The notes beneath the pieces are model-generated. The model saw nothing but the letters and a program-made list of their open reading frames with translations. It made no database searches and was not told where the DNA came from. From a virus (lineage: Duplodnaviria; Heunggongvirae; Uroviricota; Caudoviricetes): a stretch of DNA of 18,535 nt. Of this stretch, positions 331 to 18,535 are shown piece after piece. Positions within the stretch are counted from its first letter, which is position 1. Each line of letters begins with the position of its first letter. The DNA lies in the IMG/VR virus record IMGVR_UViG_3300049617_000342, positions 1 to 18,535 of that record; one strand, given 5' to 3'. The position numbers were made by a program, and so were the translations under genes.

Positions 331-338
331 GGTGACAA

Positions 339-3792: not shown

Positions 3793-3869
3793 AGCTGCTC
3801 CCCTGGGTGACGATGATCTGGTGCGCCCCCATCGTGGCGTTCTGCGTCTGGTTCGCGTGGCCCCGGTGA
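3780..3869 (+). CDS. Small hydrophobic membrane peptide (29 aa, MAQVELLPWVTMIWCAPIVAFCVWFAWPR)
   Basis: Fills the gap exactly; stop overlaps GTG 3866; one hydrophobic stretch. Confidence 0.5.
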   Translation: MAQVELLPWVTMIWCAPIVAFCVWFAWPR

Positions 3870-4072: not shown

Positions 4073-4907
4073 GGGCACCTGGCACAAGGCGCCGGAGACG
4101 AAGGTCACGCCCTACAGGCTGAAGGCGCCGTACGACAACGTGTACGTGGGCGAGGACCCGGGCGACGGAATGACCCAGGAGTACGCCGACCAGTTCGACG
4201 CCATAGTCAACGTGAGCTGCACAGAGTGCGCCCTGTTCGAGCCGAGCAGGCCAGACCAGAGGACCTACTGGTACCCCATAAACGAGATGGGCCGCTGGTC
4301 GCTGGGCTACCTGTTCTGGCTGAAGAAGGTCATGGACTTCCACCACGACAAGGGCCACAGGATCTACCTGCACTGCCACGCCGGCGCCTACAGGTCTCCA
4401 TCGGCCGCCGTGCTCTGGCTCCAAAGCAGAGGCCACACCCCTCTAGAGGCCATATCCCTAGGCGCCATGAGGTGCGACAAGAGCGCGCTGTACTCGCTGT
4501 GGAAGTCCCACGGCAACATACCGAAGATGAAGGACGCCCTGTACGAGTCCATGAGGAACAACAAGTGGAACAGCTTCGCCAGCCACATACTCAGCAGGGA
4601 CTTCTGGAACCGCGACCTGTGGAACCCCGAGATAGCGGCCCCCGGCCACATGATGCGCGCCCACATACTGCACAGGTACTTCTGGTTCTACTACCAGCCG
4701 AAGTACTGGCTCAAGGGCAAGTGGGAGAACGCGAAGTACTGGTGGGAAGGCTGCGGCTACCACGAACACGGCTACGGGAAGTACATCTACCCGAGGAAGA
4801 ACTTCTGGGAGTGGCCACTGGACGCGGAGCCCGAGGACGCCAGCTATACTGCGGGGATAGGCAAGACCTGGGACAAGTCCGACAGGACCTTCAGGGTCCG
4901 ATCTTGA
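4059..4907 (+). CDS. Cysteine (dual-specificity/PTP-like) phosphatase with an aromatic-rich C-terminal extension (282 aa)
   Basis: P-loop IYLHCHAGAYRSPS (HCx5R[S/T]); N-terminal NVYVG and DAIVNVS elements typical of DSPs; TTG start after a GGAGG SD. Confidence 0.85.
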   Translation: MSRFEGTWHKAPETKVTPYRLKAPYDNVYVGEDPGDGMTQEYADQFDAIVNVSCTECALFEPSRPDQRTYWYPINEMGRWSLGYLFWLKKVMDFHHDKGHRIYLHCHAGAYRSPSAAVLWLQSRGHTPLEAISLGAMRCDKSALYSLWKSHGNIPKMKDALYESMRNNKWNSFASHILSRDFWNRDLWNPEIAAPGHMMRAHILHRYFWFYYQPKYWLKGKWENAKYWWEGCGYHEHGYGKYIYPRKNFWEWPLDAEPEDASYTAGIGKTWDKSDRTFRVRS

Positions 4908-5235
4908 TCAGCTCGTCGCCCATCTTCCTGAACGTGAGGCCTTTGGGCTCGTGGTACTTGATCAGGGCCAGCAAGACCGTCTCGGCATCAAGGTAGTTCA
5001 GGTAGAACTCCCTCTCCTCGCCACGCTCGTTCCCCTTGAAAAGCTTGACCCTCAGGCCGTTGCCGGTGTCCTCCAGCTTGAGGGCCTCGCGGTGGTCGCT
5101 CCACTGGTTGTCGTACTCCGAGAAGCCAACCTTGACCTCCCTGTCGCTGTCGACGGCGAATCCAGACTCGACGCGCCAGCCGCTGTACTCGGCCGGGTGC
5201 TTCTTGGTGCTCGAGAAGTAGTGCTCGGTGGTCAT
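4891..5235 (-). CDS. Hypothetical protein (114 aa, MTTEHYF...)
   Basis: GGAGG SD before ATG 5235; trimmed from track ORF 4891..5310; converges on the phosphatase gene. Confidence 0.75.
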   Translation of the reverse strand: MTTEHYFSSTKKHPAEYSGWRVESGFAVDSDREVKVGFSEYDNQWSDHREALKLEDTGNGLRVKLFKGNERGEEREFYLNYLDAETVLLALIKYHEPKGLTFRKMGDELIKIGP

Positions 5236-5357
5236 GGCATCCTCCACGCGCCGTAGCGGTGGTAGAAGGTGACGGCCTCGCTCACGACCATGTAGGTCAC
5301 GCTGCCGCACACGGCGACTATCATGGACCCTATCAGAAACCTAAAAATAGAATTCAT
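5232..5357 (-). CDS. Small single-pass membrane protein (41 aa, MNSIFRFLIGSMIVAVCGSVTYMVVSEAVTFYHRYGAWRMP)
   Basis: Not in the ORF track; AGGAGG-like SD; stop overlaps the next start (ATGA). Confidence 0.6.
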   Translation of the reverse strand: MNSIFRFLIGSMIVAVCGSVTYMVVSEAVTFYHRYGAWRMP

Positions 5358-5610
5358 CCCTGCCCTCCTTGAGTTCCTTGACCTCGCGCTCCAGCCTGGA
5401 CAGCCTCTCCTCGACGGGGTCGGGCCTGATCATGGTGATCCACTGGCCGTCGTGGAAGATCTTGTCCTGGTAGGTCTTCTGGTCCCTGGCGAGCATCACC
5501 AGGAAGCCGTCTATCTTGCCGTCGGCCGGCAGCTCGTCCACCTCTCGGTAGCCCATCATCACGTTGCCGTTGAAGAACAGGCAGAAGTAGCGCTTAGAAG
5601 TATCCGTCAT
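5341..5610 (-). CDS. Hypothetical protein (89 aa) with a C-terminal coiled coil
   Basis: GAGG SD, codon bias, VEERLSRLEREVKELK heptads. Confidence 0.74.
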   Translation of the reverse strand: MTDTSKRYFCLFFNGNVMMGYREVDELPADGKIDGFLVMLARDQKTYQDKIFHDGQWITMIRPDPVEERLSRLEREVKELKEGRDEFYF

Positions 5611-5911
5611 CGTCGTCCTCTAGCGGGTCTACGTCCTCACCGAGGTCGTCGAAGCTGGTCTCGTTGTGGCCACCGCCGAGGCGGTTGTTGTACTCGGGAT
5701 CGGGCACGCCGTCGCGGTCGTGGTTGACCTTCGGCGGCTCGTACGCGGGGAGCTGGTCCACCGCGGTGATGTCCTTCTCGCCCCCGAAGCTCTCGAAGTC
5801 GTCGAAGTCGTTCTGGAGGACCTTCTTGGCCGCGTGGTCTAGGTTGTCGGCCTCCACGTCCACCTCTCGCTGCTCCTTGTACTTCACCCTGAATATCTTT
5901 GAGTCGCTCAT
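5594..5911 (-). CDS. Highly acidic protein (105 aa); N-terminus resembles the DpnD/PcfM-like small phage domain
   Basis: KIFRVKYKEQREVDVEADNLDHAAKKV pattern; 30 D/E vs 11 K/R by manual count; ends EDDDDGYF. Confidence 0.74.
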   Translation of the reverse strand: MSDSKIFRVKYKEQREVDVEADNLDHAAKKVLQNDFDDFESFGGEKDITAVDQLPAYEPPKVNHDRDGVPDPEYNNRLGGGHNETSFDDLGEDVDPLEDDDDGYF

Positions 5912-6210
5912 CTCTGTCTCCTAGGTCGGGCCGCCGCATGGGCCCTTCGTTCTACTGCCTCCATGACCTTCTCGTCCTTCTCGACTTCCTCGTCCCACTT
6001 GTTCAGCGTGTATCCGGCGTAGTAGACGCTCATCATGCCCTGCGCCAGGTCCTCCCTGCACCTTGGGGGCCGCATCACACCCTCGAAGAAGGAGAGCAGC
6101 TCCTCAGCCGGGTCCGAGTCGGCGTATCCGTGGCGCTTCCTGAGGGCGCCCTGGAAGCGGTCGCTCTCGAGGAACTCGGCCACCTTCTTCCTGAAGTCGT
6201 CTCTCCTCAC
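5908..6210 (-). CDS. Hypothetical protein (100 aa, start GTG 6210)
   Basis: GTGA overlap with the iscA stop; ATGA overlap at the 3' end; trimmed from track ORF 5908..6264. Confidence 0.68.
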   Translation of the reverse strand: MRRDDFRKKVAEFLESDRFQGALRKRHGYADSDPAEELLSFFEGVMRPPRCREDLAQGMMSVYYAGYTLNKWDEEVEKDEKVMEAVERRAHAAARPRRQR

Positions 6211-6548
6211 GCCCGGAAGCTCCCGCCGCAGCCGCACGTGTTGGTGGCCTTGGGGTTTTTCCACGTGAATCCCTGGCCCTTGAGGCCGCCGTCGTAGTCA
6301 AGGGTGCAGCCCTCCAGGAACAGCCAGCTCTTCTTGTCGACCATGACCAGTATCTTGCGGGCCCTCTCGTCGTTGTCGGTGAAGAACATGTACTTGTGCG
6401 TGGCCGCCGGGTCGTCTGCGGGCGGGTCCATCTCGTCCATGAGGTACACGAGGCCGCTGCACCCGCCGCCCTGCACGCCCAGCTTGAGAGCCTTGCCGTC
6501 GGGCAGCACGCGCCTGAGCTGCTGTACCGCCTCGAAGGTCAGGTTCAC
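6207..6548 (-). CDS. iscA: IscA/HesB (A-type) iron-sulfur cluster carrier protein
   Basis: All three conserved Cys present: GVQGGGCSGLVY and NPKATNTCGCGGSF; internal VDKKSWLFLEGCTLDY is also typical. Confidence 0.92.
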   Translation of the reverse strand: MNLTFEAVQQLRRVLPDGKALKLGVQGGGCSGLVYLMDEMDPPADDPAATHKYMFFTDNDERARKILVMVDKKSWLFLEGCTLDYDGGLKGQGFTWKNPKATNTCGCGGSFRA

Positions 6549-6847
6549 CTGAACAGCTCCCTCTTAGACTTGATGTCGACCAGGGTGGACTTGAGCCTCT
6601 CCTCGTAGGACTGGCCTCCCTTGAGACGCTCCTCGGCATACCTGGTGGCCCAGTGTCGCAGGACACTTTGTACCCTAAACTGGTCCAGGAAGTGGAAGGG
6701 CACGTCGTTGAGCTTGTAGAATCCCCACCCGTTCGCGGTCCACAGGTGCATCTTCAGCTTGGCATTCACCAGGGCATAGTGCCCCTGTTCCCAATCGAGC
6801 GGCTCTCTGTCTACCGACCGTCTAGCCTGTTCCAGCATCCTGCTCAT
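6545..6847 (-). CDS. Hypothetical protein (100 aa)
   Basis: Abuts the upstream stop; GTGA overlap with iscA. Confidence 0.68.
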   Translation of the reverse strand: MSRMLEQARRSVDREPLDWEQGHYALVNAKLKMHLWTANGWGFYKLNDVPFHFLDQFRVQSVLRHWATRYAEERLKGGQSYEERLKSTLVDIKSKRELFR

Positions 6848-7000
6848 TCAGTGTCTCCACACCTCGACCATCAGGCCGAGCGAAAAGAAGGCTATGTTCA
6901 GGTCCCACACGGCGGACGGGGCCACGTTGTCCAGCACGAGGTTGGCCAGTATCCCGGCCGCGCACAATACTATTATAAGCGCCCGAGGCTTCCTCACCAT
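6848..7000 (-). CDS. Small membrane protein with two hydrophobic segments (50 aa, MVRKPRALIIVLCAAG...)
   Basis: C-terminal part of track ORF 6848..7249; start overlaps the upstream stop. Confidence 0.6.
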   Translation of the reverse strand: MVRKPRALIIVLCAAGILANLVLDNVAPSAVWDLNIAFFSLGLMVEVWRH

Positions 7001-7188
7001 CCGATGCTCGGGCCCTCGCCGGGCCTGCGGCCGCAGTTGGGCTTGGTGCACTTCAGGAACCCGGTCTCGTCGTAGTCCCACTTGTGGGGCGGGCAGGCGT
7101 TGGGGTCCTTGGCCCTGGGGGCTCGGTTGGCCATGTAGGCCACGAAGCCAAGGAACAGGAATATGACGAGCAGGCTGTCTAGGTCCAA
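6994..7188 (-). CDS. Membrane-anchored small Zn-finger-like protein (64 aa)
   Basis: GGAGG SD 7 nt before TTG 7188; N-terminal TM (LLVIFLFLGFVAYM) then CPPHKW...CTKPNC. Confidence 0.6.
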   Translation of the reverse strand: MDLDSLLVIFLFLGFVAYMANRAPRAKDPNACPPHKWDYDETGFLKCTKPNCGRRPGEGPSIGW

Positions 7189-7264
7189 GGGTTCGCCTCC
7201 ATTGTAACCTTGGTATACACTGGGCGACGCCGGAGGCACGGCGGCGCACGAAGGGAGACGTTAC

Positions 7265-7585
7265 GTGAAGGAGCTATCGCCCTCGCAGGGCTTCATAAAG
7301 ATCAAGCGGGCCAGGTACAGCCTGGACGAGACCAAGAGGTTCCTCTTCTTCTGGAAGAGGGACGACGTGAACGGCAAGTGGAGCGCCCACTACACCGACC
7401 TGGTACTGGACAAGAAGAACATACGGATAGTCATGCCCGGCACCGAGGACACCGACAACGACCCCTGGTACCAGCGCATAGTGGACAGCTTCACCATAAT
7501 CAGGACCTACTGCGGCAGGGACTACTGGGTCAAGGAGAGCGTCGAGGAAGTCAACAAGATGCTCGGAGAAGAGAAGGCCGAATGA
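7265..7585 (+). CDS. Hypothetical protein (106 aa)
   Basis: AGGGAG SD before GTG; first gene of a divergent block; ATGA overlap at end. Confidence 0.74.
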   Translation: MKELSPSQGFIKIKRARYSLDETKRFLFFWKRDDVNGKWSAHYTDLVLDKKNIRIVMPGTEDTDNDPWYQRIVDSFTIIRTYCGRDYWVKESVEEVNKMLGEEKAE

Positions 7586-8121
7586 AGAGACTGTTCATAC
7601 TCTTAGCCCTGATGTGCGGGTGCACCGGACCGTCGGGCTCCAACGGAGCCAACGGCGGTAACTGCCTGGTCAGCTCCAGCCCCGTCAGCACGAACCAGCC
7701 CTACGGCGGCGTGCTCATCACCTGCCCGGGCGAGGCTCCCCTGATGATCAACAACGGACCGGGCGGCGTGGCGACCACCGGCTCGACCAGCAGCTTCTCC
7801 CCTACCATAGCGATCGAGCCCTGCGGCTCGGCGTCGGCGCAGTACAAGGAGGCCCTGCTTGGACTCGTGGGCGGCGGCGTGTACGCGTTCTACGCGGGCA
7901 CCAGCGGCTCGACCCTGGCGGCGGCCAACGTACTCATCCCCGACAACAACTACTGGGACACCGACACCAGCGAGTGCAACTTCAGCGTGACCACCGCCTC
8001 CGACGGCACCAGGACGGTGAGCTGGAACGGCAGCACCAACAACGGGCACCCCGCGGGCTACTACCCCGCCGGCAGCGTGGTCTACACCCCGGCCACCATG
8101 AGCTGGAACCCGGGGCCCTGA
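7582..8121 (+). CDS. Putative lipoprotein (179 aa)
   Basis: MKRLFILLALMCG-C signal peptide II/lipobox-like; G-x-x repeats (GPSGSNGANGG); Gly/Ser/Thr-rich beta-type body with Cys residues. Confidence 0.78.
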   Translation: MKRLFILLALMCGCTGPSGSNGANGGNCLVSSSPVSTNQPYGGVLITCPGEAPLMINNGPGGVATTGSTSSFSPTIAIEPCGSASAQYKEALLGLVGGGVYAFYAGTSGSTLAAANVLIPDNNYWDTDTSECNFSVTTASDGTRTVSWNGSTNNGHPAGYYPAGSVVYTPATMSWNPGP

Positions 8122-8840
8122 TGGTAGTCAGGGAGATCCTCCCCAGAGTCTATCTGCTCACCTCGAACAGCACCAGGAAGCTGGCCCGGATGTTCGTGCG
8201 CCTCGAGGAGTACTTCGAGAGCCCCAACCCGGCCTTCAGGGACAACGTCTTCGACATGGGCAAGTTCCGTAAGTGGTACCGGCAGGACCGCAAGGCCAAG
8301 CACTTCACCTACTACACCGACTGGACGGGCTTCAACGTGCCCGGCCACGTGGTCGACGTGTTCAGGGACGCCAAGAACAAGACACCCGCCGAGAAGGAGC
8401 TGTTCAAGCACCTGCCGCACACCAGGGAGCCCAGGCAGGGCGAGATGCCCGTCTACTACAACACCACCGAGCACAAGATCGACGTGATGGGCAAGTACTA
8501 CGTCATAGCGTCCCACGGCAGCAGCCGGACCACGGTGAGGCACGAGGTCGGCCACTCCCTCTACTACATGTATCCCGCGTACAGGGACATGGTCAACGAA
8601 GTGCTCGACAAGGCCGAGGCGGCGCCGGGCGGCAAGAGGGCCTTCAGGGCGGTGCGCAGGCTGCTGAGGGAGACGGGCTACGCCAACAAGACCATCAAGG
8701 ACGAGACGCACGCGTTCATAATGGCCGACAGGGACTACCTGGAGGAGGAGGGCGTCTGGGACGCCGGGCTCGACCAGGTCACCCACGACCTCAACACCAT
8801 ATTCGACTCGTTCATGGCAGCACTCGGAGGAAAACTATGA
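8121..8840 (+). CDS. Zincin-like metallopeptidase-motif protein (239 aa)
   Basis: TVRHEVGHSLYY (HExxH) with a downstream DETHAF glutamate as candidate third ligand; TGATG overlap start. Confidence 0.75.
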   Translation: MVVREILPRVYLLTSNSTRKLARMFVRLEEYFESPNPAFRDNVFDMGKFRKWYRQDRKAKHFTYYTDWTGFNVPGHVVDVFRDAKNKTPAEKELFKHLPHTREPRQGEMPVYYNTTEHKIDVMGKYYVIASHGSSRTTVRHEVGHSLYYMYPAYRDMVNEVLDKAEAAPGGKRAFRAVRRLLRETGYANKTIKDETHAFIMADRDYLEEEGVWDAGLDQVTHDLNTIFDSFMAALGGKL

Positions 8841-9052
8841 TAGAAGCGTTGACAGTGATAGCCCTTATGTGCCAGACGCACCCCGGCTACGAGCAGAGCG
8901 CGCAGACGGCTCAGCACGTTCAGAAGCTGTGCATGACAAGGATGATCGGCTGCGTGAAGGCGGCGGCGGCCAAGGACGTGCGCCTCAGGGACATAGACGG
9001 CAAGTGGGTCAGGGCCGTACCCGGATGCGTGGACGGCGAGGCGGAGGAGTGA
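8837..9052 (+). CDS. Small, probably exported Cys-containing protein (71 aa)
   Basis: GGAGG SD, ATGA overlap, hydrophobic N-terminus, four Cys. Confidence 0.68.
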   Translation: MIEALTVIALMCQTHPGYEQSAQTAQHVQKLCMTRMIGCVKAAAAKDVRLRDIDGKWVRAVPGCVDGEAEE

Positions 9053-9315
9053 GCGGCCTGGGCACCAAGACGGAGATGAAGCAGACCGGCGCGATGGCGC
9101 GGGCCGTGGTGGCGAAGCTGGTGGAGCTGGCCAACAAGAAGGGCAAGGTCACCATCAGCAAGGACTTCGGGCACTCCATGAGCTGCACGCTGTCGACCTA
9201 CGACACGCACACCCACCCGGGCTGGACGGACCAGAGCTACGGAAAGACCGAGCTGGACTTCCTCAAGGCGCTCATGCAGGGCCTAGAGACCCTAGAGAAC
9301 CACAAGGAGGACTGA
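9049..9315 (+). CDS. Hypothetical protein (88 aa)
   Basis: GGAGG SD and GTGA overlap; TGATG overlap with the next gene. Confidence 0.7.
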   Translation: MSGLGTKTEMKQTGAMARAVVAKLVELANKKGKVTISKDFGHSMSCTLSTYDTHTHPGWTDQSYGKTELDFLKALMQGLETLENHKED

Positions 9316-9668
9316 TGGCTGAGTTCAGGGACTGGACGGTGTTCGACGGCGGCATAGACTACGGGCAGAGGTTCAGCCCGGACGTCAAGATCGAAATGGA
9401 CGTCCCGGAGCTCCCCGTGATCAACGACAACAACGGCCTCTCCATAGGGGGAGCCAGGAACTTCTACATGCACGGCGGGAAGATGAAGGCCGACGTGTTC
9501 ATACACGACAAGTGGGCCGACCCCATGAACGACATGGCCAAGGCCGGCATGCTGGGCTTCTCCATCTCGGGCTTCGTGATAGGTAAGGACAACGGCAAGG
9601 TGACCAACATCAAGGCCAACGCCGTCAGCGTCGATCACCAGAGGTCCCACTCGTCCAGAAAGACATAG
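9315..9668 (+). CDS. Hypothetical protein (117 aa), possibly an inactive prohead-protease (assemblin-fold) paralog
   Basis: GFSISGFVIGKD resembles the protease Ser motif (KISVEGKVLERD in 12999..13667); VINDNNG aligns to VNSDHSG. The ORF is well supported; the fold call is weak. Confidence 0.6.
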   Translation: MAEFRDWTVFDGGIDYGQRFSPDVKIEMDVPELPVINDNNGLSIGGARNFYMHGGKMKADVFIHDKWADPMNDMAKAGMLGFSISGFVIGKDNGKVTNIKANAVSVDHQRSHSSRKT

Positions 9669-9976
9669 CTGGGCTCCTTGCAGGCCAACAGGTCCCACTG
9701 CTCCTTGGAGATCATCTCCCTCTCCCACGCCCTACGGGAGTGGTGGCTCTCGTCCTTCCAGGCCCTGTTGAAGCTGTTGCGGCCCTTGCTCCCGGGCCAG
9801 TAGCAGTTCCCCTTGACCTTGTCTCGGTTGAACCCCTTTCGCTCGCGCCACTCTTTGCGCGCGAGGTCGGGGGTCTTCCTCTCGAGGCCGGTCTGCCTGA
9901 ACGCGGCGCGGCGGCGGAAGAAGTCCGTGTGCCTGTGGAAGTACTTCCAGTAAGCGGGCCATCCTGTCCATCCCAT
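9635..9976 (-). CDS. Basic, Trp-rich hypothetical protein (113 aa)
   Basis: AGGAGG SD before ATG 9976; overlaps the convergent gene 9315..9668 by 34 nt. Confidence 0.7.
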   Translation of the reverse strand: MGWTGWPAYWKYFHRHTDFFRRRAAFRQTGLERKTPDLARKEWRERKGFNRDKVKGNCYWPGSKGRNSFNRAWKDESHHSRRAWEREMISKEQWDLLACKEPSYVFLDEWDLW

Positions 9977-10042
9977 GTGTTCTCCTCCTATGCTAGAGTC
10001 ACATATTAGATGTCATCGTGCTATCCTCCGTGCCCTGTGGGC

Positions 10043-10076
10043 AAATAAAAAGGCCTCTGGATCTCTCCAGAGGCCT
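10043..10076 (-). terminator. Intrinsic terminator after the major capsid gene
   Basis: Perfect 11-bp stem AGGCCTCTGGA/TCCAGAGGCCT (10051-10061 / 10066-10076), 4-nt loop, followed on the - strand by TTTTATTT. Confidence 0.88.
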
Positions 10077-10105
10077 CGAAACTTCTGCCGTTACCGGCCT
10101 AGCCG

Positions 10106-11635
10106 TTAGGCCTTGCCGATGTTCTGGAAAATCCCGGACTTGCGGGGCGCGAAGATTATGATCGTGCCTGCGAGCCAGAGCAAGAACTCCTTGGCGGTCG
10201 TGATGGGCGCCAAGTTGATCTTCATGAGGGGAGCGAGCTGCCTCCACACCATGATTTCGGGTCTCATGTCCATCATGTAGGCTGTTGCGCTTCCTTGGAA
10301 GCGGTTGCCTGCGTCGATGTACAACGAGATGCTGCCTGCTGAACGCTTCTGGTACCCGACGAACTCGCGGATTCCTGAGCCCTGGCTCGAGGTGCGGTAG
10401 ATCGCGTAGTGGGTAGCGTTTGTGGACACGTCGTAGATGTTGAACGACGCTTGGTTGCCGTTGGCGGAGATCGTCACTGAGACGGTCTCGAGGTAGGCCG
10501 CGCCCTCACCCTGCTCGTTGCAGGATGTTACGCGGTACACGTAGATGTCGCCCGCGCTGAGGTTGGACTGCCCGTTGGGGTTGGAGAATGCGGCCTGGTC
10601 CATCACGTTGCCCGATCCAGCTACGATCGAGGCGGTCGCGTTGTTCCTGAGGTCGCCTGGGGCGTTTGGAACCCCAGCCCGGTCGTTCTGGGACTTCGAC
10701 TGAGACTTGGGTTTCAAGAAGATGTTGGGACGGAGTTGAATTCCACCGGCCGTGGTAACCATCTCACGAACGATGTAACCGGCCTTCCCGTCGGCCATTC
10801 CGAGGGCGTTGACCCTTTCCTTGGGGTAGAACTGCTTGATGAAGTCGGACATGGTCCTGGGGGACATGTGTGTCTGGTCGGGACGTCCGAAGTTCTCCAC
10901 GAGGAGGTTGGCTTCGAACTCGAAGTCAGTCTCGTTCATGAAGTCGCCGAGCTTGTCGTAGATGACGGTGTCTGTTGCACCGTAACCGTCGAAGGCTCTA
11001 GCTTGGGCGGTGAAGTCTGAGTCGCCCTGGCGGATGAGGACCTCTGCTCCGGTCAAGTTGAGGTTCTGGAGCTTGAGGGGGATTGCTTGGTTGGATCCGT
11101 CGAACAGGCCGGCGTTGGAGAACTCGGCCAAACCCTTGTAGAGTTCGCGCTCCATTCTTTCCAACATCCAGAGTGTTCCAGACTGTGACTCGCGGGTCTC
11201 GGGGTCAGCGCCTAGGGCCTGACGGACGAGGGTGGACGCGAGAGAGACGCCCCTGCGGGTGGAGAAGAAGACCACCTTGGCGTTCTGACGGTTGTACTCA
11301 CTGTCGTTCATGGCAGGTGAGCCGGACTCTGGGATGTATGGTGATCCCCCGTCGCCGTAGCTGTTGGTCCTGACGTACTGCTCTGTCAAGCTGTAGGCTC
11401 GGTCTTGGGCGATGCTTGGCCAGAACACGAGGTTCGTGGCGTCATACGTCACAGACTTGAGGGTGGAGTCGAGGGACTCGGCCACGAGAGCCGCTCCGCC
11501 GACGAGGCTGCCTGGGGCGTTTAAGCCGTTGGCGTGGCCGATCTGGAGGGTTTTAACCAACTCCTCGGCTTGCTGCACGTCCATGGACTGGGAAGCCCCG
11601 GTGTTCAGCCCTACGTTAAAAAGATCGTCGAACAT
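10106..11635 (-). CDS. Major capsid protein, HK97 fold, SPO1/phage K (Herelleviridae)-like (509 aa)
   Basis: LVK-T..G...GGAAL..ESLD.TL..VT...NLVFW..I...A.S..EQY...YG..G...I.E.G pattern matches K/SPO1-type MCPs; MERELYKG; FN3-like insertion (YVYRVT...YAIYR); located after protease and scaffold. Confidence 0.92.
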   Translation of the reverse strand: MFDDLFNVGLNTGASQSMDVQQAEELVKTLQIGHANGLNAPGSLVGGAALVAESLDSTLKSVTYDATNLVFWPSIAQDRAYSLTEQYVRTNSYGDGGSPYIPESGSPAMNDSEYNRQNAKVVFFSTRRGVSLASTLVRQALGADPETRESQSGTLWMLERMERELYKGLAEFSNAGLFDGSNQAIPLKLQNLNLTGAEVLIRQGDSDFTAQARAFDGYGATDTVIYDKLGDFMNETDFEFEANLLVENFGRPDQTHMSPRTMSDFIKQFYPKERVNALGMADGKAGYIVREMVTTAGGIQLRPNIFLKPKSQSKSQNDRAGVPNAPGDLRNNATASIVAGSGNVMDQAAFSNPNGQSNLSAGDIYVYRVTSCNEQGEGAAYLETVSVTISANGNQASFNIYDVSTNATHYAIYRTSSQGSGIREFVGYQKRSAGSISLYIDAGNRFQGSATAYMMDMRPEIMVWRQLAPLMKINLAPITTAKEFLLWLAGTIIIFAPRKSGIFQNIGKA

Positions 11636-11663
11636 TCTTGTCTCTCCTATTGGCTTCCCTAGC

Positions 11664-12485
11664 TTAAGCTAGGATGTCTTCGAGCCGTTCATAGTCGGAA
11701 GGCATCAGTTTGCCAAGTTCCGTCCTGGTTATTAGGTCGGTATCGACCCTTCTGTCTCCTGACTTCCTCAACTCGACGAGACGGTCTAGCGCCTCGAGCT
11801 TGCTGAACTTCGGTTTTGCTGCTTCCCTTGCTGCCTCTGCGTCGCCGCTCTTCATGAGGGGCGATGCGCCGGATAGGCCGCGTCGGGGAGCTGCGGGGGC
11901 TGCGGCGAACTTCTCGATGATGCCCTTGAGCTCATCGATCTTCTTGTCGTAGCCTCCGATCTTGTCCTCGAAGCTCTTCCTGAGTTCCTCGATGGCAGCC
12001 TTGCTTGTGTCGGCTGCTGCGGGTGCAGGGGGAGCTGCGGGGGCTGGTGCTGCCTCGGACTTGGTGATGGTCTCGGCTTTGATGAGGCCGCGCTTCTCCA
12101 TCTTGGCCATGATCGACTTGTGCATTTCCTTCAGCTCGTCGTCAGAGCACTCCTCGTCCTTCTTGTCCTTTTCCTTGTCCTTCTTTTCCTTCTCTTCCTT
12201 CTCCTTGGCCGCCTCTGCTTCCTTGTCAAGGGGTGACTTGACGTGGTCGCCCGGCAGAGCCTTCGGCTGCTCGGCGGGTGAGGGGTGGAGGGGGTCCAAG
12301 TCCATTCCCTTGTCTAGGGGAGACTTAACGTGGTCCCCTGGGAGCGGCTTTGGCTGTTCTGCTGGCATTGGATGTAAGGGATCCAAGTCCAGGTTAGCTT
12401 TCTCGAGCTTCTCGTACGTATCGATCGCCTCTGTGAGCACGTCGGATACCGCAGCGAGGAGTTCGGCTTTTGTAGGTTTTGCCAT
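11664..12485 (-). CDS. Putative capsid scaffolding protein (273 aa)
   Basis: Directly upstream of MCP; charged, helical and low-complexity (EKEEKEKKDKEKDKK, APAPAAPPAPAA); many h-x-K-S/A motifs. Confidence 0.7.
   Translation of the reverse strand: MAKPTKAELLAAVSDVLTEAIDTYEKLEKANLDLDPLHPMPAEQPKPLPGDHVKSPLDKGMDLDPLHPSPAEQPKALPGDHVKSPLDKEAEAAKEKEEKEKKDKEKDKKDEECSDDELKEMHKSIMAKMEKRGLIKAETITKSEAAPAPAAPPAPAAADTSKAAIEELRKSFEDKIGGYDKKIDELKGIIEKFAAAPAAPRRGLSGASPLMKSGDAEAAREAAKPKFSKLEALDRLVELRKSGDRRVDTDLITRTELGKLMPSDYERLEDILA
12221..12392. repeat. Two in-frame tandem copies of an 87-nt (29-aa) unit in the scaffold gene
   Basis: LDLDPLHPMPAEQPKPLPGDHVKSPLDKG / MDLDPLHPSPAEQPKALPGDHVKSPLDKE; copies at 12221-12305 and 12308-12392. 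Confidence 0.95.
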
Positions 12486-12512
12486 GTATGGCTCCTTTTC
12501 CTCGTTGGTTCC

Positions 12513-12980
12513 TTAGGCTCCGACTCCGCCTGCGCGGCTGTCGTTGACGATCTGGGTCGTGATGTTCGCGTAAAGGATCTGCGAGCCATCGAGCGTCTCA
12601 TAGGAGGCGCTGTTGATGATGTTCAAGGTAGCGCATCCGATTCTTCCGGCGGCGTACACCAATCGGGCCAAGATGTCGACGTTGTAGGCTGCCGATGCTT
12701 GGTTGAACTGGACGAACAGGTCAGTCTCTGGGAGACCGTTTGCTGACGAGCTTGAAAGCTCGGCAACGACCTGGAAGCCGTTGAAGGCCTTGGCTAGGAA
12801 GGCGATGTAGGCGACTGCCACTCCGCCGATGCTCACCAAGATTGCTGGCGACTCGCCGGCGATTACTGCGTCAGCGGAAGCGCACTGGCTGACTTGGGTG
12901 CTGGCTGAAGCGATGGTAAGGACGATGTCCCTTGCAAGCCTCTTGACCAGTTGGTCCCGTGTATTTGTTGCTAAACTCAT
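12513..12980 (-). CDS. Head-module protein of unknown function (155 aa)
   Basis: GGAG SD; lies between protease and scaffold; same codon style as MCP. Confidence 0.75.
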   Translation of the reverse strand: MSLATNTRDQLVKRLARDIVLTIASASTQVSQCASADAVIAGESPAILVSIGGVAVAYIAFLAKAFNGFQVVAELSSSSANGLPETDLFVQFNQASAAYNVDILARLVYAAGRIGCATLNIINSASYETLDGSQILYANITTQIVNDSRAGGVGA

Positions 12981-12998
12981 CGTCTTGCTCTCCTTTGG

Positions 12999-13667
12999 CT
13001 ATGACGCCCGCTTGGGGGCCGTTTCGGTTTCTTGGACCCTTAGGGCTTCTCTCAGAAGCTGCCGGGCTACTATCGCCAGCTGGTGGACCCTGTTCAGGGG
13101 GTCGTCGCTGGACTCTATGAAGTCTGGTGACTCGGACTTGAACAGCCTCTCCGCGCCCATGCTCTTCGCCATCCCAACCACTTCCGTCATGGTGTTGTGG
13201 TTGGCGGGCTGCACGGTCAGGGCCAGGCCCTTTATCAGCGTTCTCTTGAGGATGTTCCGGTTGCTGGGGTCCCTCTCGAGGACCTTGCCCTCGACGCTGA
13301 TCTTGATGGGGGCTTCCTCCCCCTTGTTCATGTAGTGCCTGTAGATGCTGGCTACTGCGTCAGCCTCCTTGTGCCCTACTCCGTCCCAGAGCTCTATCTT
13401 GCTTGCCAGGAACGGCCTCTTCAGCCTGTCCCAAGCCTTCCTCTGGTAGGGGGTCTCGGCGTCCTCGGCCTTCTCGATCTTCTTGGCGTCGACTACCCTG
13501 CCCAAGAGATGCTCGAATCTGCCGGAGTGGTCCGAGTTGACAAAGCCCTTCCCCTCTTTGAGCGGCGAGATGTCCGCGCCCGCGAGGTTAAGGGTCTCCT
13601 TCTGACTATCCCGATCGGGAGTCGTGGAGACACACTCGATCATGGTGGCCTTCTGGAGGGGTTCCAT
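12999..13667 (-). CDS. Prohead (capsid maturation) protease (222 aa)
   Basis: STTPDRDSQKE, GFVNSDH (catalytic His), KISVEGKVLERD (catalytic Ser), GLALTVQPAN; position in the head module. Confidence 0.88.
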   Translation of the reverse strand: MEPLQKATMIECVSTTPDRDSQKETLNLAGADISPLKEGKGFVNSDHSGRFEHLLGRVVDAKKIEKAEDAETPYQRKAWDRLKRPFLASKIELWDGVGHKEADAVASIYRHYMNKGEEAPIKISVEGKVLERDPSNRNILKRTLIKGLALTVQPANHNTMTEVVGMAKSMGAERLFKSESPDFIESSDDPLNRVHQLAIVARQLLREALRVQETETAPKRAS

Positions 13668-13724
13668 CTGATATGGATTGTCACCCCGAAAGTGTAGACT
13701 GAGATGTCCTGAGTTTGTTTGAGG

Positions 13725-14033
13725 CTAGGGCTGGGGGTCCTGGGGGGAGTCTGGGTCGTCTATCTGCTTGGCGAGCTTGCGGAAGTTGGATACTATCTTC
13801 TTGACCTGGGTGTCGTCGATCATCTCGACGCGGGCAATCCTGGGTGTGGGCATTGGCCGGCCGTTGCCCCTCTGCTCCATCAGGGAGAAGAAGCAGTAGT
13901 TGGACTCGGCGTCAGCGGCGTACCATGGGCACCCGCCAGTCTGGCCCTTGCGAGCCAGATCAACGGCCTTCTTGCCCTCCTGGCATGGCTCCGTTGGGTA
14001 CTGGCTAAGCCCCCTTGGGCAGCGCTTATCCAA
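13725..14033 (-). CDS. Cys-rich protein with a C-terminal HTH-like segment (102 aa, TTG start)
   Basis: C..C...CPW...NYCF followed by MPTPRIARVEMIDDTQVKKIV (resembles sigma-70 region-4 HTH spacing); the start overlaps the HNH stop; the upstream part of track ORF 13725..14207 is an HNH shadow. Confidence 0.6.
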   Translation of the reverse strand: MDKRCPRGLSQYPTEPCQEGKKAVDLARKGQTGGCPWYAADAESNYCFFSLMEQRGNGRPMPTPRIARVEMIDDTQVKKIVSNFRKLAKQIDDPDSPQDPQP

Positions 14034-14487
14034 AATTGGGCCTCGAAAACTCTCCGAAAAACATGTTAGAGGCCTTGTCGTAGGCCCTGGCAGCCTCTTC
14101 CTCAGTGTCGAAGGTCCCAAGCTGTATCTTGGCACTCCACTTGCCCTTGGAAGGGTAGACGCCCTTGTACCTGGAACTGCCTTCGTACTTGCGTCTGTTT
14201 TGGGCATTTTGAGAGGGGGTGCAGAGCCTTAGATTGGAACGCCTATTGTCTAGGCCATCACCGTTGACGTGGTCAACTATGGAGCCCGCAGGAGCCTTGA
14301 GGATGTGCCTGTGCATCTTGACAGCGGTGCGCTTCTTTGAGGTCCTGTTTCTGGAGACGGCATACTGGTTGCCGCTCCTGTCCTTATCGAGGTGCCAGCT
14401 AAGTTGGCTTACAGAGTCGTAGTCTTGAAGGCTGACTAGGGCGAACTTGTCGTTCCCCAGAGGAATCCTGCGAATCAGCTCCGTCAT
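14026..14487 (-). CDS. HNH-AP2 homing endonuclease (153 aa)
   Basis: MHRHIL...IVDHVNGDGLDNRRSNLR...QNAQN (HNH_3 type) plus SSRYKGV...KW...LGTFDTEEEAARAYD (AP2 domain); more A/T-rich than flanking genes. Confidence 0.92.
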   Translation of the reverse strand: MTELIRRIPLGNDKFALVSLQDYDSVSQLSWHLDKDRSGNQYAVSRNRTSKKRTAVKMHRHILKAPAGSIVDHVNGDGLDNRRSNLRLCTPSQNAQNRRKYEGSSRYKGVYPSKGKWSAKIQLGTFDTEEEAARAYDKASNMFFGEFSRPNFG

Positions 14488-14716
14488 TTCTTTGTCCAGG
14501 CTGCTTCCCTTTTCCGGCCATCATCCTGCCGATGGCCTCTACGGCAGCCGACTCGGCTGACTTGACCTTAGTGTACTCCGTAATGGAGACGATGACGTGG
14601 GTGTGCTGGAGCATGTGCTTGTGGGCTCGGAGCTTGCGGAGGTCCCTCAGGAGCTTCTCGACCCCCATTGCCTCCATCTTTATGCTCGCGGCGTGTATCT
14701 CTGCTGTTGTGATCAT
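14399..14716 (-). CDS. Hypothetical protein (~105 aa); 3' end runs 89 nt into the HNH gene
   Basis: Good codon bias up to ~14500, then out-of-frame HNH-derived sequence; no clear SD. Confidence 0.55.
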   Translation of the reverse strand: MITTAEIHAASIKMEAMGVEKLLRDLRKLRAHKHMLQHTHVIVSITEYTKVKSAESAAVEAIGRMMAGKGKQPGQRNDGADSQDSSGERQVRPSQPSRLRLCKPT

Positions 14717-14747
14717 GTGTTGATTATGCGCCGCGCCGGGCAGGGAC

Positions 14748-14924
14748 TTAGGGCGCTGGATCGGCTCCTTTGGGTGGGGGTGCGACGATCTCACACAGGC
14801 TGTAGGGTCCCGCGTTCATGCAGATCACCTTGAGTCCGCCGTTGGACAGATTGTAGACGAACACCGAGACGTAGATGAGCGCGATGGTGGGAATGATCGC
14901 CAGGGCAAGTATCAGTGCTTTCAT
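14748..14924 (-). CDS. Small membrane/exported protein (58 aa, MKALILALAIIPTIALIYVSVFVYNL...)
   Basis: Not in the ORF track; GAGG SD, TGATG overlap, long hydrophobic N-terminus, two Cys. Confidence 0.65.
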   Translation of the reverse strand: MKALILALAIIPTIALIYVSVFVYNLSNGGLKVICMNAGPYSLCEIVAPPPKGADPAP

Positions 14925-15178
14925 CAGATTACCCTCAAGTAAGATTTGTGCTTGGTTCTAACGATGTCCATGGTGGCCTTCTTGACGTAGATGGCCGCTA
15001 TGTCGGCCTTCTTGGGGGTCTCGAATAACTGGATCCTCTCCCTGGGATAGAACATCTTGGTCAGCTGCCTAACCTCCCTCTTGCCAAGCAAGATCTTGGT
15101 GGGCGCCCTGAAATTGGCGACCGCGTCGGCTGCCTTGTCCTCGATGCGCTTCATCAGGTCGGCTGTCTTTATCTTCAC
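14924..15178 (-). CDS. 84-aa protein resembling an internal segment of this phage's MCP
   Basis: GTGA overlap start; NFRAPTKILLGKREVRQLTKMFYPRERI vs MCP NFGRPDQTHMSPRTMSDFIKQFYPKERV. Confidence 0.72.
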   Translation of the reverse strand: MKIKTADLMKRIEDKAADAVANFRAPTKILLGKREVRQLTKMFYPRERIQLFETPKKADIAAIYVKKATMDIVRTKHKSYLRVI

Positions 15179-16551
15179 TTGTCGAATCCTTTCCATGGCT
15201 TGATTATACTGTCAAGGCTGGCGTCCCTGTCGACGCGGCTGTTGACCTTCATGAGGCGCGAGTCGCCGACCGGGTGGCCCTCCACGGACTCCCAGAGCCA
15301 CTGCCCGCAGTTACACTCGAGGATGCCGATGCTGACCGCGAAGTCGTCTGGCGGGACCATCGGGCCGTTGGTGAACATGGTGGCGCCGCTCTGCATGAAC
15401 GTCTGGCTGGCGGTGTGCACGTGGCCTACCCCGAACACGACGTACTCGTCCATGTCCTTGAGGGCCGCGTTGATGCTGTTGATCTGGTCGCCCAGGCTCT
15501 TGATGCCGATGTTCTTCCCCGGGTTCCCGGGGTTGAGCACGGTGTCGCCGTGGGTGAAGAAGCTCTTCTTGCCGAAGTGCTCGTAGGTTACGAACGGCGT
15601 CTTCGGTATGTGGAACTCGACGTTGGTCATCTCGCTGCAGGCCTTCATCAGGCTGTAGTAGATGAAGGTCTCGAGGCTGTCCCACTTCTGGTGCGTCGCT
15701 CTCTCCTTGTGCCGTCCCGTGTTGCGGCCGTGGTTTCCCGTGGCGCAGCGCACGTTGATCTTCTTGTATCTGGAGGCCAGGTAGCTGACCATCTGTAGCA
15801 GGAGGTGGAGGGCCCGGGCCATCTGCTCGGCCACCGCGGCGCCGTCGTTGGCGTCGTGGAGCCTGTTCTGGATGATGTCTCCGAGCAGTAGGAGCTCGAG
15901 TTCCGTCTCGTCGCGGTAGTGGCTCTTGTAGTCGCCGATCTGCTTGGTGATCGACGCGAGCCTTCTGGACTCCTGGAGCACGCCGAAGTCTATGGAGCCG
16001 GTCTCGTCCTGCTTGATGTCGCTGCCTATGTGGAGGTCGCTGAGCATGACGTTGACGACGCGCTGGGTCGGCACCACGATGCGGGGCCTACCCGGGCTCT
16101 TGTACTGCTCGATGCGGCCCTTGAAGATGCGGTCGCTGTAGTCCTCGATCTTGTTGAATATCCACTCGAGCCTGTTGAGCTCGCTGCCGAGCTTCCTGTT
16201 GGCTCTGGCGTGGGCCTTGATGGCTGCCTTCTCCACGGAGACCTCGGTGGTCTGCGGCGGGAAGTACGCGTCCCTGATGGCGTTGAAGCCGCCGGCGCGT
16301 GTGATGTCCTTGGGGGTTATCTCCGCTGAGTTCTTGCCCCAGGCGAAGTTGATGTACTCTCTGAAGTCCAGCCATATGAGCTGGCTGGGGTGCTTGTCGA
16401 GCTGCCCGGCGCACGCCTCTATCTCGTCCGCGATCTTCTGGCCGAGGACCTTGCGCTCCTCTTCCTTCTCCGCCCTCTTCGCCTCTATTAGCGCGAGGTA
16501 GTCCTTCTTAGGCTTGAGTTTTGGGCGGTTCTTCTTGTTGCGCTTTGCCAT
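15175..16551 (-). CDS. Calcineurin-like metallophosphoesterase with a long N-terminal extension (458 aa)
   Basis: All five motifs present: LSDLHIG, LLGDII, TGNHGR, FTHGD, VGHVH; start at ATG 16551 after GGAGG. Confidence 0.88.
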   Translation of the reverse strand: MAKRNKKNRPKLKPKKDYLALIEAKRAEKEEERKVLGQKIADEIEACAGQLDKHPSQLIWLDFREYINFAWGKNSAEITPKDITRAGGFNAIRDAYFPPQTTEVSVEKAAIKAHARANRKLGSELNRLEWIFNKIEDYSDRIFKGRIEQYKSPGRPRIVVPTQRVVNVMLSDLHIGSDIKQDETGSIDFGVLQESRRLASITKQIGDYKSHYRDETELELLLLGDIIQNRLHDANDGAAVAEQMARALHLLLQMVSYLASRYKKINVRCATGNHGRNTGRHKERATHQKWDSLETFIYYSLMKACSEMTNVEFHIPKTPFVTYEHFGKKSFFTHGDTVLNPGNPGKNIGIKSLGDQINSINAALKDMDEYVVFGVGHVHTASQTFMQSGATMFTNGPMVPPDDFAVSIGILECNCGQWLWESVEGHPVGDSRLMKVNSRVDRDASLDSIIKPWKGFDK

Positions 16552-17194
16552 CAGTACCCTCCTGGGGTTGCACCGCTTCCAACTTCGGGGCGGCTGGCTT
16601 CTCTTTCCTGAGACCGAAGAGTGTGAACTCCGCCTCGTCGATGTGGTCGCCGTTCTCGATCTTGATCTTCTTCGTCTCACCGGGCTTCATGCCGACGACG
16701 TTGATGTCGATCTCGGGGAAGAACTCGTTGGTGCCGAGCTTGAACTTCGTGCGGAAGATCTGCTGCTCGTCTGATAATTTCACGCCGCTCTTGTAGAAGT
16801 CGATCCTGCCTATGGCGTACTGGTCCAGCTCTGCGGGGCCGTCCGCGGGCTCGAGGTCGAGCTTGGCGTCGTCCGCTACGTTGGCAGCGTCGAAGCTGGT
16901 CATCTGTAGGTCGGTGACCTTGTCGATGATCTCTTGCTCGGCTATGTTGAACTTCTCCACCATGATCTTCATGATGGCGAGCGAGCGCCAGTCGGCGATC
17001 TTCGCGTAGCCGTTGGCCTGCTGCACGCTGAGGTTGAGGCTCTGGTGCTTGTTCCTGAGGCCGATCGTCTCCTGGAGGCAGCTCGACATTACGCGAGTGA
17101 TGCGCTCCTGGAAGTCCATCTTCTGTAGGCCCGCTTCCTTCTGCTCGCGGCCCTTGAACTGGAAGGCCTTGCCCTTGTTATTGTTCTCGCTCAT
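16508..17194 (-). CDS. Coiled-coil protein with a C-terminal trigger-factor/FKBP-like domain (228 aa)
   Basis: IDF...KFKLGTNEFFPEIDINVVGMKPGETKKIKI...AEFTL resembles trigger-factor FKBP (lGs..fipgfEe.lvGmk.Ge.k.i.v...a.F.v). Confidence 0.68.
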   Translation of the reverse strand: MSENNNKGKAFQFKGREQKEAGLQKMDFQERITRVMSSCLQETIGLRNKHQSLNLSVQQANGYAKIADWRSLAIMKIMVEKFNIAEQEIIDKVTDLQMTSFDAANVADDAKLDLEPADGPAELDQYAIGRIDFYKSGVKLSDEQQIFRTKFKLGTNEFFPEIDINVVGMKPGETKKIKIENGDHIDEAEFTLFGLRKEKPAAPKLEAVQPQEGTDGKAQQEEPPKTQA

Positions 17195-17202
17195 GTCTCT
17201 CC

Positions 17203-17766
17203 TTAGACCGCCCCAGGTGCGTCTGGGTCGTATTCGGTTTGCATTTGTTGGATTACGCTTCTGGCTATGGCCGTGTTGACCTTCTGGTGGATGGCCACGG
17301 GGTCAGGCTGCCTCATGGGTCTGGCGTTGGGGTTGGGCCTCACGAGTCTGCCGCTCGAGTCGCGCATGGCGGGTGGCGCAACGATCGCGTTGGGGTTCAC
17401 GGGCTGGTCGTAGCTGGCGGACGCCCTGTTGTTGAGGGCCACCTTCGCCTTGGTGGACTCGACCACTAGCTTGAGGATCTCGACGTCCTCCTCGGTGAGA
17501 GCTGAGGCCGCGATCCTAGGCGCGTCAGCCTCGGCTTGCGCGCGCCTGTCGCCTAGGAGCTCCTCTATCCTGCTGAGGACGAAGAGCTGGAACTCCTCGT
17601 TGATGAACGAGCCGATGTTCTCCGGCCCCTTGATCCTGAGCTTCTGCCCCTGGAGTGACCTGAATGCGTTGATGAGGTCGATCTTGGTGGACGCGTTGTT
17701 TGGCAGGGCCGCGGGTGCCTCCTGCTTCACTTCAGCCTTCTTCTCTGCTACCGTAGCTTCAGCCAT
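17203..17766 (-). CDS. Hypothetical protein (187 aa)
   Basis: GGAGG SD, codon bias, same operon orientation. Confidence 0.78.
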   Translation of the reverse strand: MAEATVAEKKAEVKQEAPAALPNNASTKIDLINAFRSLQGQKLRIKGPENIGSFINEEFQLFVLSRIEELLGDRRAQAEADAPRIAASALTEEDVEILKLVVESTKAKVALNNRASASYDQPVNPNAIVAPPAMRDSSGRLVRPNPNARPMRQPDPVAIHQKVNTAIARSVIQQMQTEYDPDAPGAV

Positions 17767-17791
17767 TCATACCTCCACCTAATGTGTACCA

Positions 17792-17995
17792 TCACTCGTC
17801 CTGGTCCCTCTGCCACTCCCTGTGGAGGCGGCCGTACCTCTTCATCTCATCGGACTCTATGGCCCTTCCGCACTCGGGGCAGTCATAGCTGTCGAGCAGC
17901 GGGTTGGCGTCCGGAGACACGCGCTCGCCGCACCCGGGGCACTCGACAGTGGGCTCGCCGGTGTCCTCGTCCTTATAGACGCTTAGCTGTGCCAT
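17792..17995 (-). CDS. Zinc-ribbon protein (67 aa)
   Basis: Two CxxC motifs: ECPGCG and DCPECG. Confidence 0.78.
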   Translation of the reverse strand: MAQLSVYKDEDTGEPTVECPGCGERVSPDANPLLDSYDCPECGRAIESDEMKRYGRLHREWQRDQDE

Positions 17996-18245
17996 TCTTT
18001 GGGGGCTTCAGTGTCCTGGTCTTGATGTATAGGCCGGTCAGGCCGCTGGATACGATCTCTAGGACCTGCTTGGGCAGCTTGTCCCCCTTCGGGAACATGC
18101 TGTTCTTCTGGTACACGACGACGTGGGACTTGAGGCTGGTGTCGACCAGGTTGCAGTCGTAGATCAACAGCTTGACGCCGTTCAGCTCCACCCCTGCGAC
18201 CTCGAGTGCACCGATCATTTTGACTTTAGCTTTCATGGCTTTCAT
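17973..18245 (-). CDS. Hypothetical protein (~87-90 aa; start 18245 or 18236)
   Basis: Open frame with typical codon bias immediately after the terminator; SD unclear. Confidence 0.68.
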   Translation of the reverse strand: MKAMKAKVKMIGALEVAGVELNGVKLLIYDCNLVDTSLKSHVVVYQKNSMFPKGDKLPKQVLEIVSSGLTGLYIKTRTLKPPKNGTAKRL

Positions 18246-18253
18246 ATACAGAT

Positions 18254-18281
18254 AAAAACGGCCCGGGGGCTACCCGGGCCG
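18254..18281 (-). terminator. Intrinsic terminator downstream of tmRNA
   Basis: 9-bp stem CGGCCCGGG/CCCGGGCCG (18259-18267 / 18273-18281), 5-nt loop, followed on the - strand by TTTTT. Confidence 0.85.
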
Positions 18282-18326
18282 GAAAACCAGCCACACCATC
18301 CCTGGCGTCTCTGGCTTTTAGATTTG

Positions 18327-18535
18327 TGGTGGACCCGGAGGGAATCGAACCCTCGTCCAGAAACGCTCACCAAGGTCATCCTACAAGCTTGCTCTGTTTA
18401 GGGCCCCGAGCGGGCCTTCAGGGGCAACAAGCTTCTGTTACCCTCCACCACCCCGGTTTTGTGTCTCTCCGAGGAAAAGAGATGGGTCCATTTCGCTTTC
18501 GCCGGCATGGTCCCGATGGCCGTCATGTGTCACGG
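18327..18535 (-). ncRNA. ssrA: tmRNA, 3' portion (the 5' part and tag frame appear to lie beyond the window)
   Basis: The - strand ends ...AAGCTTGTAG...GGAC-GAGGG-TTCGATT-CCCTC-CGGGTCCACCA: T-arm, encoded CCA, A73, and U70 compatible with the G3:U70 Ala identity. No anticodon/D-arm precedes it; instead ~170 nt of structured sequence. Confidence 0.88.

Follow-up and report, generated by a model that had tools for sequence, protein, structure and literature searches.

An uncultured phage from moss metagenomes carries, in addition to the gene for its major capsid protein (MCP), a small gene whose 84-amino-acid (aa) product is in all probability related by common ancestry to a single segment of that MCP, residues ~228-310. 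The small gene (P0005; 14924..15178, minus strand), here called the mini-gene, lies in the window, i.e., the 18,535-nucleotide (nt) stretch analyzed, positions 1 to 18,535 of IMG/VR record IMGVR_UViG_3300049617_000342. Contigs from four moss-metagenome runs matched the window letter for letter wherever they covered it and contained neither a variant nor a joint.

The mini-gene starts with a GTG at 15178, with an AGGA Shine-Dalgarno (SD) site 8 nt 5' of it. An alternative in-frame ATG at 15196 would give a 90-aa form (P0001) with six additional residues and lacks an SD site; the 84-aa form is the product of a public gene caller, and the N termini of the homologues begin at the equivalent point. 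The GTG overlaps the stop codon of the metallophosphoesterase gene upstream (GTGA), and the TGA of the mini-gene overlaps the start ATG of a 58-aa gene downstream (ATGA). GC contents at codon positions 1, 2, and 3 were 0.43, 0.34, and 0.80, the same pattern as in the neighbouring real genes of this genome of 63% GC. Moreover, we obtained a dN/dS of 0.18 between the orthologues of L005 and L012, which are 76% identical and in which the central loop holds most of the changes. The coordinates and minus-strand orientation given in a preliminary description of the window were correct, and its reading of the open reading frame (ORF) as intact, coupled on both sides, and not debris was borne out by the SD site, the two overlaps, the third-position GC content (GC3), and the dN/dS check across homologues that it had suggested. 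The mini-gene is intact, stands alone, and is under purifying selection, and it is very probably a functional gene.

The upstream neighbour encodes a calcineurin-type metallophosphoesterase or exonuclease (15175..16551, minus strand; phrog_284, E 9e-34), whose start was putatively placed at the first ATG. From its translation, the 58-aa gene downstream (14748..14924, minus strand) encodes an N-terminal hydrophobic helix; no family match was found for it in Pfam or PHROGs. Two genes downstream of the mini-gene lies an HNH_3/AP2-type homing-like endonuclease gene (14026..14487, minus strand; PF13392, E 7e-10; phrog_99, E 8e-33). A 131-aa ORF at 14399-14794 (minus strand) shares 47 nt with the 58-aa membrane-protein gene and 89 nt with the HNH gene; it has no family match and a lower GC3 of 0.66, and it is a putative gene whose start may lie further in. 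The first conserved head gene downstream is that of the prohead protease (12999..13667, minus strand; phrog_1028, E 9e-15; 75% identity to the L008 homologue), followed by a 155-aa gene, a 273-aa gene, and then the MCP gene. The two strongest terminator-like hairpins of the minus strand lie at 18259-18281 and just past the MCP gene (10050..10077); for the interval between them, 10077 to 18259, the hairpin scan reported no terminator-like site on that strand. Because of this uninterrupted stretch, the mini-gene is probably cotranscribed with the head genes, and in the window phage it would share a transcript with the protease, scaffold, and MCP genes. Separately, the mini-ORFs at 754-948, 1235-1444, and 9315-9668 (plus strand) were considered as a protease-like or scaffold-like "shadow head module" and found no support, with p values of 0.03-0.98 and a BLASTP E value of 22 against scaffold, protease, and MCP.

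The MCP of the window phage (10106..11635, minus strand; 509 aa) is an HK97-fold protein of the SPO1/phi812/SU10 type (phrog_752, E 4e-58). It matched SPO1 Gp6.1 (PDB 9vel) with an E value of 7e-45 as well as phi812 (5lii), and it matched about 320 MCPs of Herelleviridae-like phages at about 28% identity. The AF2 model of the MCP had a pLDDT of 71, and Foldseek matched it to 9vel with an E value of 1e-31 and also found SU10, encapsulins, and HK97 (2ft1/1ohg). The order of elements in this model is an E-loop hairpin at residues 84 to 120, the spine helix at 145 to 166, extra helices, and then a strand at 225 to 227, a helix at 235 to 247, a strand at 254 to 257, a helix at 259 to 267, a loop, and strands at 291 to 294 and 297 to 303. 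An insertion domain (328 to 441), P-domain strands (450 to 467), and two strands at 484 to 506 make up the C-terminal part. The insertion domain is beta rich and follows the A-domain core (residues ~328-441; window 10313-10654, minus strand); one source labels a 75% identical relative "plastocyanin," which is probably a misannotation of this domain. We also observed that MCPs that are 72-75% identical (window 10106-11635, L008:8001-9488, and L009:8001-9473) come from DNA of 63% GC (window genome), 44% GC, and 36% GC (the loci examined), respectively, a large compositional shift inside one phage lineage.

The preliminary description had reported an ungapped 28-residue match between the mini-protein and the MCP. 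We confirmed this match, with 10/28 identities, and located it at MCP residues 248 to 275 (window 10811-10894). BLASTP of the mini-protein against the MCP gave 30 bits with 16/48 identities and an E value of 5e-6. The proposed shuffling check of the pairwise alignment proved significant: the Smith-Waterman score of 62, compared to a shuffle mean of 27, was reached by 0/5,000 and 0/2,000 shuffled sequences (0/7,000 in all; Gumbel p 5e-6 to 1e-5). As a genome-wide control, a hidden Markov model (HMM) of the MCP family, built without the window MCP, was run against the 1,509 six-frame ORFs of at least 30 aa in the 93-kb genome. The window MCP scored 690 bits, and the mini-ORF was the sole non-MCP hit, with 24.6 bits and an E value of 7e-7 over HMM positions 232 to 274 only; the next ORF reached 6.7 bits (E 0.19). 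Four other small ORFs compared with four head proteins as a further control gave p values of 0.02-0.98.

Profile-profile comparison extended the match over the entire mini-protein. Using hhalign, the alignment of the mini-family matched that of 29 MCPs with 91.6% probability (P 8e-7) over 64 columns, and in global mode residues 1 to 84 of the mini-protein aligned to MCP residues 228 to 310 (P 5e-7), corresponding to window positions 10706..10954 (minus strand). When both window proteins were removed, the mini-family found the same MCP region in three MCP subsets (P 2.5e-6 to 6.6e-5), and the best match was to the most distant, SPO1-like subset. Of nine family members, eight hit the MCP HMM within about positions 230 to 297, seven of them within positions 230 to 281, and each of the eight outscored 300/300 of its own shuffles; the members are relatives, so this does not amount to a ninefold replication. 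The remaining member, P0012, did not hit the MCP HMM. These per-member hits indicate that the similarity belongs to the family and is not an accident of one sequence.

The mini-family is rare, with about 12 diverged clusters that all have intact frames of 77-96 aa and conserved ends. Searched exhaustively with phmmer, a set of 1.84 billion representatives yielded eight homologues that are 77-95 aa long and 31-49% identical; longer proteins were absent from the hits, and a profile search added three further members. All members come from metagenomes and were seen in uncultured phages only. When four family members were compared by tblastn with 50,697 phage records, no real match was obtained; two pattern scans of viral contigs found no relatives, Pfam and PHROGs gave no family for the mini-protein, and an ESM Atlas search returned unnamed viral clusters only. 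Three blocks are conserved in the family, namely R-I-E-x-K, P-T-K-x-Y-L-G-K-K-E-x-x-E-L-N-K-x-F-x-P-x-E-R, and the C-terminal T-K-H-K-S-Y-L-R-V. The family keeps the residues that are most conserved in the MCP stretch, N-[FL]-x-x-P and F-x-P-x-E-R-[IV]. Conservation of FYPxER, a check named in the preliminary description, was largely found: F, P, E, and R are kept in most homologues, but the tyrosine is specific to the window protein. The family-invariant residues R11, K15, G32, E35, H77, S79, Y80, and V83 are mostly not residues of the MCP. Eight of nine members have a pI of 9.3-10.7, with 15-21 Lys plus Arg per ~80 residues; the pI of the window mini-protein is 10.3, that of the matching MCP segment is 6.8, and that of the whole MCP is 5.1. 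The family is no closer to the MCP clade of the window phage than to SPO1-like MCPs, and its origin is therefore probably old.

The predicted structure agrees with the sequence match. The mini-protein model, built from its own family alignment only, has helices at residues 5 to 21 and 33 to 42, strands at 28 to 31, 71 to 74, and 80 to 83, and a poorly predicted loop after the second helix; the AF2 model is of low confidence (pLDDT 57.7). With the register set by hhalign, the first four mini-protein elements coincide with the MCP helix at 235 to 247, strand at 254 to 257, helix at 259 to 267, and strand at 297 to 303. The secondary structure of the mini-protein thus matches that of the MCP segment in register, the outcome expected in the preliminary description for its check of the predicted fold. 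The three tests by which that description could have failed, on shuffled scores, predicted structure, and motif conservation, all left it standing. The canonical HK97 A-domain is a sheet with helices alpha5 and alpha6 at its sides, and it is formed by the part of the chain that runs from the spine helix until the polypeptide re-enters the P-domain. This is where the matched MCP segment lies, behind the spine helix and ahead of the P-domain strands; the preliminary description had likewise placed it in the A-domain. Element register and HK97 topology together support the assignment to the A-domain, and the mini-protein is predicted to be an A-domain core that lacks the C-terminal strands by which the MCP sheet is completed. 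A Foldseek search of the PDB with the low-confidence model returned nothing at E <= 0.001. The wide VIA-align search with the same low-confidence model peaked at a Z of 4.9 (R3H, Smr, and ribosomal proteins), within the noise range of the tool, and the prediction of a complex between MCP and mini-protein scored 0.00, which is evidence neither way.

We then considered the genes around the homologues in other phages, as far as the contigs reach (0.5-15 kb). The mini-gene homologue of L002 lies directly before an HNH gene, and that of L005 lies directly after an HNH/EndoVII-like gene; in L012, a close relative of L005, it follows a C5 DNA methylase gene. In L010, the mini-gene is near genes for a ligase and a nucleoside deoxyribosyltransferase, and in L006 it is between a membrane protein gene and a methyltransferase gene. 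Within the reach of these contigs, the mini-gene was not near head genes and no neighbour family recurred across lineages; indeed, the gene upstream is a different one in each of the other lineages (HNH, C5 methylase, a 228-aa unknown, and a membrane protein). A fixed partnership with HNH genes was rejected, since HNH genes are absent from L006, L010, and L012 and are of more than one family elsewhere. Comparing L005:3897-4871 with L012:716-1916, we observed that the upstream gene differs (HNH/EndoVII-like versus C5 methylase) and that the downstream genes are 80-90% identical; the slot upstream of the mini-gene behaves like a cassette-exchange site in these two phages. A 269-nt GC-rich spacer with apparent self-complementary stretches lies upstream of the mini-gene homologue in L002 (L002:6271-6538) and gave no match in Rfam and none in a tRNA scan. 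L002 and L005 each have one further gene in common with the window genome and may for this reason be distant members of the group of the window phage.

In L008 and L009, whose MCPs are the 72-75% identical ones, the 8 kb upstream of the MCP gene contain neither a mini-gene nor membrane or HNH genes. Their gene order is a 228-aa gene, the phosphoesterase, a small gene, the protease, a 155/168-aa gene, a scaffold-like gene, and MCP, and neither phage has genes in that slot matching those that span the mini-gene through the HNH gene in the window. The mini-gene of the window phage occupies a variable slot just upstream of conserved head genes, and it is probably dispensable for head assembly, since L008 and L009 have no copy in those 8 kb. 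Upstream of the head genes, a metallophosphoesterase is present in all three phages (window 15175-16551, L008:3382-5115, and L009:3793-5421), with differing families: phrog_284 ("exonuclease") in the window and phrog_1745 ("DNA transfer protein") plus phrog_221 in L008 and L009. No similarity between the window phosphoesterase and those of L008 and L009 was detected by tblastn.

As to how such a gene would have arisen, the mini-gene very probably descends from an SPO1/SU10-type HK97 capsid gene of which only part was copied. The copy would have kept the A-domain core only, i.e., helix alpha5, a strand, helix alpha6, a loop, and a beta-hairpin (MCP residues ~228-310), and the fragment would have turned into a functional accessory protein that stands alone and is maintained by purifying selection. 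The direction would be from MCP to mini-protein, since an A-domain is universal in HK97-fold proteins. Having no N-arm, E-loop, spine helix, or P-domain, the mini-protein cannot be a building block of the shell. It may instead be a soluble look-alike of the A-domain of unassembled MCP that fills the surface normally receiving this domain. A possible target is the acidic MCP or capsomer, of the phage itself or of a competitor, in which case capsomer formation might be delayed, capped, or poisoned; an alternative target would be a host factor that recognizes the MCP. The gain of about +10 in net charge could give the mini-protein an edge over the native segment on an acidic partner.

Capsid-directed mimicry of this kind is the mode of action that we tentatively favour, at somewhat less than an even chance; the decoy, capsomer plug, and assembly modulator of the preliminary description are candidate roles. 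It is consistent with the retention of the best-conserved MCP motifs in the family, with the stretch free of terminator-like sites between the mini-gene and the protease, scaffold, and MCP genes, and with the pairing of a basic mini-protein and an acidic MCP. Single-domain offshoots of oligomeric proteins generally act on their parents, which mimicry fits. However, the invariant residues of the family are mostly not those of the MCP, and the shared ones could merely hold the fold together. The other phages have their mini-genes among HNH, C5 methylase, ligase, nucleoside deoxyribosyltransferase, and methyltransferase genes in the 0.5-15 kb seen, L008 and L009 lack a copy in the region covered, and the fold of the mini-protein is a prediction from a low-confidence model. 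Given the basic charge, the invariant residues of its own, and the contexts away from head genes, a function unrelated to the capsid is about as likely as mimicry.

In that reading, the exapted A-domain core would be a small alpha/beta module of basic charge whose ligand is nucleic acid or some other polyanion, and it would belong to the early or DNA-metabolism programme of the phage; we give this a slightly lower chance than mimicry, although the charge and the gene neighbourhoods suit it equally well. The high pI and the Lys and Arg content argue for this explanation, as do the largely basic family-specific positions (R11, K15, the LGKKE block, and the TKHKSYLRV tail), the DNA enzymes that adjoin the mini-gene in other phages, and the phosphoesterase or exonuclease gene that overlaps it in the window. 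However, Pfam and PHROGs gave no match to a nucleic-acid-binding family, the neighbours vary by lineage even between L005 and L012, and the retained F-x-P-x-E-R would be unexplained unless it is purely structural. The mini-protein might also be a minor virion component, either a plug at the capsomer centre or a decoration protein, or else a basic protein of the head interior that enters with the packaged DNA and is recruited by its A-domain-like shape. T4 internal proteins are likewise basic, and the probable cotranscription with the protease, scaffold, and MCP genes and the predicted MCP-derived fold would fit such a role; it is nevertheless improbable in view of its absence upstream of the MCP in L008 and L009, its distance from head genes in other phages within contig reach, and the lack of a match to known decoration or internal proteins in PHROGs and Pfam.

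Two further explanations concern the origin of the mini-gene. A chance or convergent likeness of a short alpha/beta protein to one MCP stretch, without common ancestry, is suggested by the low identity (about 22% at the profile level and 33% over 48 residues), by the E value of only 1.5 for the MCP when the HMM of the mini-family alone was used to search the genome, by the missing MCP HMM match of P0012, and by the mutual relatedness of the members, whose hits are not fully independent. Against this, the E value of 7e-7 is corrected for all 1,509 genome ORFs, the same region was found with both window proteins removed, the match spans the whole mini-protein with independently predicted secondary structure in register, and other small ORFs compared with head proteins gave p values of 0.02-0.98; we therefore consider a chance likeness very improbable. 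Decaying debris, i.e., a functionless leftover of a capsid gene carried by a homing-endonuclease cassette, was already disfavoured and can hardly be the explanation. HNH-type genes do occur within two genes of the mini-gene in the window, L002, and L005, and in the window the mini-gene and the genes as far as the HNH gene sit in a slot without matching genes in L008 and L009. However, the diverged clusters with uniformly intact frames and conserved ends, the low dN/dS, the SD site, and the coupled starts all argue against decay, and the HNH genes differ in family and are absent from three of the phages.

If the mini-protein acts on capsid protein or on its host sensors, as mimicry would have it, it would represent an assembly regulator or immune decoy of a new type, and one that its length of 84 residues would make easy to test. 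Host sensors that detect capsid protein include CapRel (PMC9712102) and a capsid-sensing TIR system (PMC11312562). A broader proposal, which we consider unlikely, is that phages repeatedly carve the A-domain from their own capsid gene as a soluble "micro-capsid" conflict protein that blinds MCP-recognizing immune sensors or caps the A-domain contacts of competitor or own capsomers, the mini-family being one independent instance of an undescribed class of accessory genes.

Among known proteins, the mini-protein resembles the SPO1/phi812/SU10-type MCPs (phrog_752, with PF17236 on some relatives; 9vel and 5lii) in its profile similarity over residues ~228-310, in the MCP-family motifs N-F-G-x-P and F-Y-P-K-E-R-V, and in the matched secondary structure. 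It differs from them in its length of 84 residues versus about 470-510, in being basic and not acidic, in being encoded by a separate accessory gene, and in having no N-arm, E-loop, spine helix, P-domain, insertion domain, or C-terminal A-domain strands. The complete HK97 architecture was not found, as MCP elements 76 to 166 and 450 to 506 have no counterpart in the mini-protein, which is a derivative of an SPO1/SU10-type MCP and not a member of that family. Extra capsid-gene copies that act on assembly through their likeness to the MCP include T4 gp24 (versus gp23) and the MCP-like Ccm of SaPIbov5. These retain the HK97 fold in full and become part of shells, whereas the mini-protein corresponds to about one sixth of the fold. 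The 30K movement proteins of plant viruses are reported to be jelly-roll capsid proteins exapted to a nonshell role (PMC10306228). Both cases would be capsid copies turned to nonshell use; the fold and the viruses differ, and a whole domain was taken in the one case and a fragment in the other.

To our knowledge, free-standing HK97 A-domains have so far been described only as the family 4 encapsulins of thermophilic archaea, the closest precedent for the mini-family. These "A-domain encapsulins" (DUF1884, PF08967, PDB 2PK8) are ~80-100 aa long, consist of the HK97 A-domain alone, occur in hyperthermophilic archaea and a few Bacteroidetes, are encoded in fixed two-gene operons downstream of an enzyme, and are thought to act via protein-protein contacts (Andreas and Giessen 2021, PMC8346489). 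The likeness lies in the free-standing, A-domain-sized protein, the fold of the mini-protein being a predicted one. PF08967 gave no hit for the nine members at E values up to 10, at which HMMER filters may hide very weak matches. Unlike the family 4 encapsulins, the mini-family is phage borne and has no fixed neighbour, since the phosphoesterase gene that overlaps the mini-gene upstream in the window is replaced by other genes elsewhere. By analogy, the mini-family would work like the family 4 encapsulin kind, of which it is not a member, and its direct similarity to one phage MCP family points to an origin separate from, and later than, that of the family 4 encapsulins. The mini-family is encoded by phages and still linked by sequence to one capsid family, indicating that a capsid gene can directly give rise to mini-proteins of this type and making it, next to the archaeal precedent, a dated and traceable case of capsid-domain exaptation.
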